17,213 bases of DNA from a virus (Duplodnaviria > Heunggongvirae > Uroviricota > Caudoviricetes). Below the pieces are notes generated by a model. That model did not search any database, was not told the DNA's origin, and saw only the letters and a program-made list of their open reading frames with translations. The position numbers and the translations under genes are program-made. Below are positions 3,127 through 4,672 of the stretch, in pieces (position 1 is the stretch's first letter; each line of letters begins with the position of its first letter). The DNA lies in IMG/VR virus record IMGVR_UViG_2681813004_000008, positions 1 through 17,213 of that record; one strand, given 5' to 3'.

Positions 3127-3287
3127 ACAGCTCCCCGTTTATTATTTATCTCCTCAGCCAGCCGCTGTGCTTTCAGGGGATTTCGGATAACAGAAAGGCC
3201 GGGAAATACCCAGCCTCGCTTCGTAACGGAGTAGACGAAAGTGATCGTGCCTACGCGGATATTATCGTGAGGATGTTTCATCGCCAT
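3099..3287 (-). CDS. Lambda orf60a-like small protein
   Basis: [54 protein letters not shown]... ; start overlaps the exo stop (ATGGCGATGA) as in lambda. Confidence 0.65.
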
Positions 3288-4672
3288 TGCTCCCCAAATA
3301 CAAAACCAATTTCAGCCAGTGCCTCGTCCATTTTTTCGATGAACTCCGGCACCATCTCGTCAAAACTCGCTATATACTTTTCATTCCGCTCAATCACGAC
3401 ATAATGCAGGCCTTCACGCTTCATACGCGGGTCATAGTTGGCAAAGTACCAGGCATCTTTTCGCGTCACCCACATGCTGTACTGCACCTGGGCCATGTAA
3501 GCCGACTTTATGGCCTCGAAACCACCGAGCCGGAATTTCATGAAATCCCGGGAGGTAAACGGGCATTTCAGCTCAAGGCCATTGCCGTCACTGCATAAAC
3601 CATCGGGAGAGCAGGCGGTGCGCATACTTTCGTCGCGATAGATGATCGGGGATTCAATAACATTTACGCCGGAAGTGAACTCAAACAGGGTTCTGGCGTC
3701 GTTCTCGTACTGTTTTCCCCAGGCCAGCGCTTTAGCGTTAACTTCCGGAGCCACACCGGTGCAAACCTCAGCCAGCAGGGTGTGGAAGTAGGACATTTTC
3801 ATGTCAGGCCACTTCTTTCCTGATCGGGGCTTTGCTATCACGTTGTGAACTTCTGAAGCGGTGATGACGCCGAGCCGTAATTTGTGCCATGCTGCCACCT
3901 TCTGCTCAGTGGCTTTCTGTTTCAGGAATCCAAGAGCTTTCACTGCTTCGGCCTGTGTCAGTTCTGACGATGCACGAATGTCGCGGCGAAATATCTGGGA
4001 ACAGAGCGGCAATAAGTCGTCATCCCATGTTTTATCCAGGGCGATCAGCAGAGTGTTAATCTCCTGCATGGTTTCATCGTTAACCGGAGTGATGTCGCGT
4101 TCCGGCTGACGTTCTGCAGTGTATGCAGTATTTTCGACAATGCGCTCGGCTTCATCCTTGTCATAGATACCAGCAAATCCGAAGGCCAGACGGGCACACT
4201 GAATCATGGCTTTATGCCGTAACATCCGTTTGGGATGCGACTGCCACGGCCCCGTAATTTCTCTGCCTTCGCGGGTTTTGAATGGTTCGCGGCGGCATTC
4301 ATCCATCCACTCGGTAACGCAGATCGGATGATTGCGGTCCTTGCGGTAAATCCGGCATGTACAGGATTCGTTGTCCTGCTCAAAGTCCATGCCATCAAAC
4401 TGCTGGTTTTCATTGATGATGCGGGACCAGCCATCAACGCCCACCACCGGAACGATGCCATTCTGCTTATCAGGAAAGGCGTAAATTTCTTTCGTCCATG
4501 GATTAAGGCCGTACTGGTTGGCAACGATCAGTAATGCGATGAACTGCGCATCGCTGGCATCACCTTTAAATGCCGTCTGGCGAAGAGTGGTGATCAGTTC
4601 CTGTGGGTCGACAGAATCCATGCCGACACGTTCAGCCAGCTTCCCTGCCAGCGTTGCGAGTGCTGTACTCAT
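3278..4672 (-). CDS. In-frame fusion of Red-beta (Bet, residues 1-261) to lambda-type exonuclease (Exo, from about residue 24), 464 aa
   Basis: N-terminal 261 aa read as lambda Bet ([32 protein letters not shown]...[11 protein letters not shown]), joined directly to Exo at [31 protein letters not shown]...GFVFGEQWR. Junction at 3889/3890 (GCA GCA TGG CAC AAA); no stop or restart between them. Confidence 0.88.

Follow-up and report, generated by a model that had tools for sequence, protein, structure and literature searches.

The window, a 17,213-nucleotide stretch of DNA that corresponds to contig AOTC01000315.1 of the E. coli assembly GCA_001447405.1, carries on its minus strand an open reading frame of 464 aa (positions 3278..4672) in which bet and exo, the genes for the annealing protein and the exonuclease of the lambda Red system, are joined into one. 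As read from the ORF list and the sequence itself, this frame starts with ATG and contains no internal stops, and NCBI names its product simply 'phage recombination protein Bet' (EGD6078234.1). A sequence-only reading had proposed that Bet and Exo are fused here into a single 464-aa polypeptide, and this is borne out by the ORF, by alignment with intact alleles and by Pfam, which places RecT and YqaJ on the same chain. Judged from its sequence, a chance origin is of no concern, given that the ORF is 1.4 kb long and matches two known genes at 98-99% identity. The features of the locus are as follows, with all positions referring to the window:

638..1801: integrase, followed by small ORFs and then by the orf63 and orf60a homologues
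3099..3281, minus strand: lambda orf60a homologue (DUF1317), whose start overlaps the stop of the fused ORF, as it does after exo in lambda
3278..4672, minus strand: fused bet-exo ORF, 464 aa, RecT and YqaJ on one chain (Pfam); its protein is GenBank EGD6078234.1 by exact-sequence look-up
3278..3889, minus strand: Exo portion, codons 24-226 plus stop, with DNA 100% identical to the exo of PhiR68_2 and of E. coli R1
3458..3889, minus strand: YqaJ / PD-(D/E)XK nuclease domain (Pfam PF09588), fusion residues 262-405
3888..3892, minus strand: deletion junction with one GCATG copy kept, made of the last two bases of Bet codon 261 and the TGG of Exo Trp24, placed by alignment with intact alleles
3890..4672, minus strand: Bet portion, codons 1-261, complete except for the stop codon
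3890..4090, minus strand: Bet C-terminal three-helix domain, about residues 195-261 (AF2 helices 199-211, 216-228 and 240-261)
4124..4603, minus strand: RecT/Red-beta annealing domain (Pfam PF03837), fusion residues 24-183, the model of which matches 7UJL
4678..4974, minus strand: gam, 98 aa (Pfam Gam), directly upstream of the fusion in the same leftward operon

Past the orf60a homologue the gene order runs through the fusion, gam, kil, a PP2C phosphatase and a Ser/Thr kinase, continues with a CI-like repressor, a Cro-like gene, YdaT, O, P and ren, and ends with emrE, ybcK, ybcL and ybcM. This is the order of a lambdoid early region, and the window represents a DLP12-type prophage located beside argU/fimZ. 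A suspicious 124-bp tandem duplication is also found in the window at 9753-10000, away from the fused ORF.

Within the fusion, the Pfam RecT model (PF03837) scored 113 bits against a cut-off of 24 and was matched over profile positions 5-195 of 198, and the YqaJ model (PF09588) scored 100 bits against a cut-off of 22 over profile positions 2-149 of 150. Numbered along the fused chain, the Exo residues W24, R28, D119, E129 and K131 become W262, R266, D357, E367 and K369. The C-terminal three-helix domain at the end of the Bet portion is the one that, in lambda Bet, binds helix E of Exo as well as SSB (PMC6393309).

In lambda (NC_001416) bet occupies 32025..32810 and exo 31348..32028, so that the stop of the first gene and the start of the second overlap by 4 bases (ATGA), as the sequence-only reading had stated. 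Across positions 3890/3889 of the window the codons run GTG GCA GCA / TGG CAC AAA, which is exactly the junction that had been read there (GCA GCA TGG CAC AAA). Alignment to both lambda and PhiR68_2, the sequenced phage closest to the window, reveals a single gap of exactly 68 bp at this point and no other indels; the earlier estimate of about 68 bp missing with restoration of the frame, and of the loss of the Bet stop together with the first 23 Exo residues, agrees with this alignment in every part. In addition, all 40 of the 40 phage matches listed were two-piece alignments spanning 1463 bp (1395 + 68). Since exo lies one base out of phase with bet, the loss of 68 bp brings Exo codon 24 into the bet frame. 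The bet stop codon is deleted and the reading frame runs on into exo, which leaves Bet without a free C-terminus, and the exo start is deleted along with the ATGA coupling of the two genes. The first in-frame ATG past the junction is codon 291 (Exo Met53), which lies beyond W24 and R28 and hence past the phosphate pocket, and a separate Exo made from an internal start is therefore ruled out.

Intact alleles have the layout ...GGTGGCA-GCATG-ACACCG...(68 bp)...GATGAT-GCATG-GCACAAA..., in which hyphens set off two copies of GCATG at positions 781 and 849 of the intact gene pair, and the deletion takes out one copy plus the interval between the copies. Together with the next four bases the repeat becomes GCATGRCAC (8 of 9 positions matching), the first copy (GCATGACAC) being situated at the bet stop / exo start and the second (GCATGGCAC) in exo codons 23-26. 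When all direct repeats of at least 5 bp that span the bet stop within about 230 bp were surveyed (n=32 pairs), the GCATGRCAC pair ranked second for local homology and was by far the most closely spaced of the top-scoring pairs, the sole higher-scoring pair being a 7-bp repeat whose copies lie 194 bp apart. The second site in lambda reads GCGTGG, and the homology there is weaker. We infer that the simplest cause of the deletion would be slipped mispairing at this best short-range microhomology. A hairpin hotspot was also considered as a cause, and it received no support from folding of the intervening 68 bp, which gave z-scores of -1.2 and -0.1.

A survey of prophages for the same junction, as suggested in the sequence-only reading, found the identical 464-aa protein on five contigs, 2 of which belong to separate NCBI assemblies, the rest being Logan assemblies of other runs. 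Substitution counts between the flanks of these contigs range from a few up to a few dozen, and the five are therefore not copies of one record; one haplotype, W, is itself present on at least three non-identical contigs. For nucleotide collections we employed a 40-bp probe centred on the junction, with which only the fused allele can seed a match, in place of a 120-bp junction query for which two-piece matches outrank one-piece matches, so that fused and intact alleles are not separable. With this probe the fused junction was present in 0 of 5,426 complete E. coli genomes and in 0 of 50,697 phage records, and the architecture is thus not a common one in either set. The junction 31-mer is GAAGGTGGCAGCATGGCACAAATTACGGCTC, and exact junction strings gave no match in GTDB representatives, IMG/VR or JGI metagenomes. 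The exo allele with GATGCATGG, which is the at-risk substrate for the deletion, was found in 2,568 of the 5,426 complete genomes. At the protein level no full-length two-domain relative of Bet-Exo was seen among the best 150 of 1.84 billion representative proteins, and because a match to both halves would have ranked at the top, there is no diverged Bet-Exo fusion family among those best 150. As a qualification, the Pfam YqaJ domain does start at the junction Trp, and in the active homologue LHK-Exo the equivalent Trp stands at position 8 (PMC3239189). Our search of the literature returned no relevant natural or engineered Bet-Exo fusion and no relevant N-terminal truncation of lambda Exo, the annotation of phage phiV10 being the sole lead.

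Once 68 bp are taken away, the bet and exo genes of E. coli R1 match the window ORF with 0 differences in 1395 positions, and E. coli R1 contains the same argU/fimZ prophage as the window. A second carrier was identified in the Logan assembly of SRR10271714 (locus L001), where the fusion resides in a different prophage, beside espL1/yniD/ydiY, that possesses a different integrase and has no kinase/phosphatase pair. The L001 ORF corresponds to the bet and exo of strain WP5-S18-ESBL-07 minus the same 68 bp, again with 0 other differences, and the prophages of L001 and of this strain are at least 99.96% identical over 12 kb. Between the fused ORFs of the window and of L001 there are 16 differing sites, all 16 of which are synonymous. 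Finally, when 9 hypothetical fusions assembled from other natural Bet/Exo alleles were looked up, 1 was found to exist, a third 464-aa variant from a Logan assembly (P0514) that has the same junction and four Exo substitutions.

The sites nearest to the junction that separate the window and L001 haplotypes lie 85 bp upstream and 65 bp downstream, and for this reason a single origin would need repeated conversion tracts of less than about 150 bp. On these distances independent recurrence would be favoured, to a moderate degree, over transfer of one deletion. We regard it as rather unlikely, if still plausible, that the deletion arose once and was then spread by homologous recombination over short patches, among lambdoid prophages resident in the same cell. 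Donors are indeed found together with recipients, with up to seven bet-exo copies per E. coli genome, lambdoid early regions are mosaic, and all carriers share the same sequence at the junction and right beside it. However, a transferred tract of such short length would have been needed twice or more, and each fusion is otherwise identical to the intact allele that resides at its own chromosomal site.

The fused protein differs from lambda at 6 amino acids, 1 in Bet (A255T) and 5 in Exo, and its Bet portion has 0 differences from the Bet of PhiR68_2. Several Exo substitutions relative to lambda had already been pointed out from the sequence as the mark of a diverged natural allele, and the five counted here confirm this. 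Compared with the intact Bet and Exo of PhiR68_2, which is an active phage, the fusion has nonsynonymous differences in 0 of 464 codons. By these comparisons the differences from lambda are standing variation that predates the fusion, with no sign of drift. Measured against their intact parents, the window and L001 ORFs have undergone no change of any kind since the deletion, and with no amino acid change to go by, neither decay nor selection is readable from the sequence. We also rejected the interpretation of the 16 synonymous and 0 nonsynonymous differences between the two fusions as purifying selection, as each allele is that of the intact parent at its own locus and the variation was inherited. 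The fused ORF shows no frameshift, no premature stop and no excess of nonsynonymous change of the sort that mark a pseudogene; what does resemble one is the rare, tip-like distribution, with each fusion found beside an intact sister allele that is identical apart from the deletion.

With respect to what the fused chain retains, the deletion removes exactly what precedes the conserved YqaJ domain as delimited by Pfam. The residues D119, E129 and K131, the pocket residues W24 and R28, and helix E, on which Bet docks, are all kept, and the columns of D119/E129/K131 and of W24/R28 are invariant in alignments of Exo homologues. Trp24 and Arg28 form the 5'-phosphate pocket of Exo (PMC7496540; for Trp24 also PMC5888420). 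Likewise, the Bet residues that contact Exo and SSB (L223, I227, F249, L250, Q252, K253, E256 and K258) are all kept. The native Exo-Bet complex has a 1:1 stoichiometry, in which every Exo subunit bears one Bet C-terminal domain at its periphery (PMC6393309). An AF2 monomer model of the fusion was built from a reduced homologue set, because Exo homologues came out misaligned in MAFFT once many Bet homologues were added. Its Exo part has a pLDDT around 90 and superimposes on 3SM4 to 1.0 Å over 204 columns and on LHK-Exo to 2.0 Å over 197 columns, and its Bet C-terminal domain superimposes on 6M9K chain D to 1.6 Å over 65 columns and also matched 8TG7. The pTM of this model is 0.46 and its inter-domain geometry is undefined, and with the reduced homologue set the Bet N-terminal domain is poorly modelled.

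What the chain lacks is Exo residues 1-23, a segment that is under constraint in the lambda-Exo family. Among 33 family members, down to 56% identity, three of its positions never vary (G11, Q19 and G20) and another three (I6, T10 and D13) reach a conservation of 90% or more, and the lengths of family members are almost uniformly 226-235 aa. In Exo this N-terminal segment packs at the 5'-phosphate site (PMC3239189). It is absent from the fusion, where the Bet tail by coincidence provides a Gln at the spacing equivalent to Q19. In the AF2 model of the fusion the pLDDT is below 50 at residues 258-265 and residues 262-269 are non-helical, as against a pLDDT of 85-89 over residues 1-30 and a helix at 22-27 for intact Exo modelled with the same homologues, a comparison in which the junction confidence is confounded by the alignment of the Bet tail to the Exo N-terminus in the input. 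The Bet end of the junction is sensitive as well: Bet minus its 11 C-terminal residues is abolished for recombination, and K258A mimics the C-terminal deletion for dsDNA recombination (PMC7496540, PMC5052646). In the fusion K258 is positioned four residues from the junction with no linker. The Bet domain ends, in the crystal structure, with a residue directed at the dsDNA-entry face (PMC6393309). Free Bet is believed to be required in larger amounts than Exo (PMC11611040), and the fusion fixes the Bet:Exo ratio at 1:1.

Taken together, we think it probable that the fusion is a slippage mutation, silent in the lysogen, whose product would keep annealing activity and have reduced dsDNA-end recombination. 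A spontaneous 68-bp deletion would have occurred through slipped mispairing between the two repeats, in the recombination module of lambdoid E. coli prophages, and on at least three haplotypes the same event has taken place or its product has been copied. In a lysogen the leftward early operon should be repressed, so that the lesion would be silent and could persist. Upon induction one polypeptide would be produced from the bet ribosome-binding site, consisting of full Bet followed, with no linker, by Exo without residues 1-23. The Bet annealing domain would presumably still work, and the nuclease core should fold and would probably trimerise. Recombination at dsDNA ends, on the other hand, would be expected to be weakened and not improved, because the conserved Exo segment that closes the 5'-phosphate site is lost and because the last residues of Bet, K258 included, are welded to the pocket residue Trp24. 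Set against impairment are the observations that no decay is visible, the ORF being open with 0 nonsynonymous changes relative to the alleles of an active phage; that the cut falls exactly at the Pfam YqaJ boundary with all catalytic and pocket residues kept; and that LHK-Exo is an active trimer without the lambda N-terminal helices (PMC3239189).

A less probable reading holds that the fusion is an active single-chain recombinase, in which the nuclease core trimerises, each subunit carries its own covalently attached Bet, and loading of Bet onto the 3' overhang follows that of the non-covalent 3:3 complex, the allele being tolerated or favoured for keeping all of Bet and the whole nuclease domain. 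We find this improbable. The exact coincidence of the breakpoint with the YqaJ start and the retention of full Bet fit such a chain, as do the presence of every catalytic and pocket residue, the fact that LHK-Exo works without the N-terminal extension (PMC3239189), and the 1:1 native complex, where Exo carries the Bet C-terminal domain peripherally (PMC6393309). We also built, from the same protein background, the products of 10 further in-frame deletions between microhomologies of 5 bp or longer, and 0 of them were found in a collection of 15 billion proteins. The occurrence of the 68-bp junction on several haplotypes (at least three, with haplotype W on at least three non-identical contigs) in the absence of these ten alternatives would also fit preferential survival of a working product. 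However, the best short-range microhomology accounts for the recurrence without selection, the junction occurs in no complete genome (0 of 5,426) and in no phage isolate, and there is no diverged family of such fusions among the 150 top-ranked protein matches. Zero substitutions since the deletion provide no test of constraint, the deleted Exo N-terminal segment is conserved in the lambda Exo family, and Bet A261 passes into Exo W24 without a linker at a junction predicted at low confidence. It is with considerable doubt that we would see in the fusion a working recombinase, a covalent Exo3-Bet3 loading complex that is made repeatedly by slippage and survives for its intact Bet and nuclease domain.

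The least credible reading, that the junction is a sequencing or assembly artefact or a laboratory construct, can be set aside: the window is a short draft contig that also harbors the 124-bp tandem duplication, but the identical fusion protein recurs in two NCBI assemblies and independently in Logan assemblies, on two DNA haplotypes at two integration sites in different prophage backgrounds, and the sequence fits wild alleles and not lambda or recombineering plasmids, just as had been held when the allele was first described as natural and not a construct.

Our data thus describe a real, rare and recent in-frame bet-exo fusion on at least three backgrounds, where it is the recurrence that is new, the Red system itself being well known. 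Should the fused protein be active, it would constitute a natural single-gene Red recombinase and a minimal enzyme for dsDNA recombineering, and would offer a ready covalent tether for directly testing how Exo loads Bet onto the 3' overhang. Should it be inactive or weakened, which we think more likely, it would be a clean case of how overlapping stop/start pairs give rise to fusion ORFs by short-repeat slippage, with the same lesion arising independently on different prophages. There is also a consequence for annotation, as the NCBI record calls the 464-aa product simply Bet. In both cases the significance is confined to the biology of phage recombination and to tools for recombineering.

Of the systems to which the fusion can be compared, lambda Red (1AVQ, 3SM4, 6M9K and 7UJL) is the closest, consisting of the same two proteins at 98-99% DNA identity and sharing the gene order gam-bet-exo-orf60a. 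Lambda makes two polypeptides where the fusion makes one, and the fusion has lost the bet stop, the exo start and the ATGA coupling. Relative to lambda Exo the fused nuclease is devoid of an alpha-helix, a 3-10 turn and the conserved TG.D...QG motif, all within residues 1-23. In this respect it resembles LHK-Exo of Laribacter hongkongensis (3SYY, 3SZ4), which starts 7 residues ahead of the equivalent Trp (Trp8, with Arg12) and is similarly without the lambda N-terminal helix and 3-10 helix (PMC3239189). Unlike the fusion, LHK-Exo is free-standing, has its own short N-terminus and no annealase, and is only about 27% identical.

An annotated RecE-RecT fusion, gp37 of phiV10 (YP_512292.1), likewise has its nuclease and annealase encoded by a single ORF, in a temperate phage of enterobacteria. 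It differs from the present fusion in having the reverse order (PD-(D/E)XK DUF3799 at 21-254, then RecT at 310-490), a nuclease of the RecE type and not of the lambda-Exo/YqaJ type, and a spacer of about 55 residues between the domains. As a precedent for evolutionarily stable fusions gp37 was rejected, since it is a singleton too and its homologues are separate proteins.

Other fusions involving bet were also encountered in E. coli prophages. These include a 485-aa protein (P0127) in which a 5-bp deletion joins Bet 1-259 to full Exo, the products of larger in-frame bet-exo deletions (P0001, 330 aa; P0002, 289 aa), and Bet-integrase fusions of 307 aa, which were present on 77 contigs. Sporadic fusions are therefore frequent in the bet-exo pair, as is to be expected for adjacent, overlapping genes in rarely expressed prophages. 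In all of these others some of Bet or of the nuclease domain is missing or, in the case of P0127, the whole Exo N-terminus is kept, and among the bet fusions that we found it is only the 68-bp event that joins a complete Bet to exactly the conserved nuclease domain.

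The 68-bp junction joining Bet to Exo in the prophage of the window was also found on a third background. A look-up of hypothetical fusions assembled from other natural alleles returned P0514, a protein of 464 aa encoded outside the window on a 2994-bp Logan contig, whose junction is identical and whose Exo part differs from that of the window at four residues, I101T, I189V, N192D and I196M (window residue, Exo position, P0514 residue).

Other natural bet fusions occur outside the window as well. A second kind of Bet-Exo fusion is represented by P0127 (EFN7224095.1, NWK21848.1; 485 aa; 3 contigs), in which Bet 1-259 runs directly into full-length Exo (…EQKV followed immediately by MTPDIIL…), and the sequence of this join is consistent with an origin through a 5-bp deletion in GTGGCAGCATGACA. 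In-frame bet-exo deletions of larger size are seen in P0001 (330 aa) and P0002 (289 aa). P0037 is a Bet homologue of 462 aa with an internal tandem duplication. The proteins P0016-P0024 (307 aa) are Bet-integrase fusion ORFs with RecT and Phage_integrase domains; one of these was present on 77 contigs, which implies a bet-to-int deletion of wider occurrence than the bet-exo fusion.

For a nuclease-annealase fusion there is also a published precedent in phage phiV10:
locus L009 of phage phiV10, 29722-31482: gp37, annotated as a 'RecE-RecT fusion'

This protein carries a DUF3799 (PD-(D/E)XK) domain at residues 21-254 and a RecT domain at residues 310-490. Since its relatives in a search of 5.8 billion clusters were all separate RecT-like and RecE-like proteins, gp37 too is a one-off, and possibly reflects a frameshift or fusion mutation in that isolate.

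The replication region of the window carries a further alteration:
8928..9908, plus strand: O-like gene
9753-10000: tandem duplication of 124 bp, within and after the O-like gene

The two copies are 2 mismatches apart, with codons of the E. coli R1 type (TASKP) in copy 1 and of the strain WP5-S18-ESBL-07 type (TAGKP) in copy 2. The duplication frameshifts O, placing MGMPGQLLVR where the conserved C-terminus KLDLTNTDWIYGVDL would stand, and uncouples the O stop from the P start at 10044. Sequence comparison did not find it in R1, WP5-S18-ESBL-07 or another fusion-bearing contig (L002). Either the prophage of this isolate has taken a second lesion, or the repeat, roughly as long as a k-mer, is an artefact of joining contigs.

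Two further genes lie between a CI-like repressor on one side and kil/gam on the other:
5737..6480, minus strand: PP2C phosphatase
6477..7202, minus strand: eukaryotic-type Ser/Thr protein kinase

They form an overlapping gene pair (5737-7202). R1 possesses the pair, and the otherwise related prophage of WP5-S18-ESBL-07 and of the fusion carrier L001 lacks it; possibly it is an exclusion or regulatory moron. In lambda this position is instead occupied by N and early accessory genes.

Comparison with DLP12 of K-12 involves the following genes:
11112-15048, plus strand: cargo genes emrE, ylcJ, ybcK (a 508-aa serine recombinase in the window), ybcL and ybcM

Both prophages possess ren followed by this emrE/ylcJ/ybcK/ybcL/ybcM set; however, DLP12 is without a complete early left arm, whereas the window prophage still retains one alongside the cargo genes.
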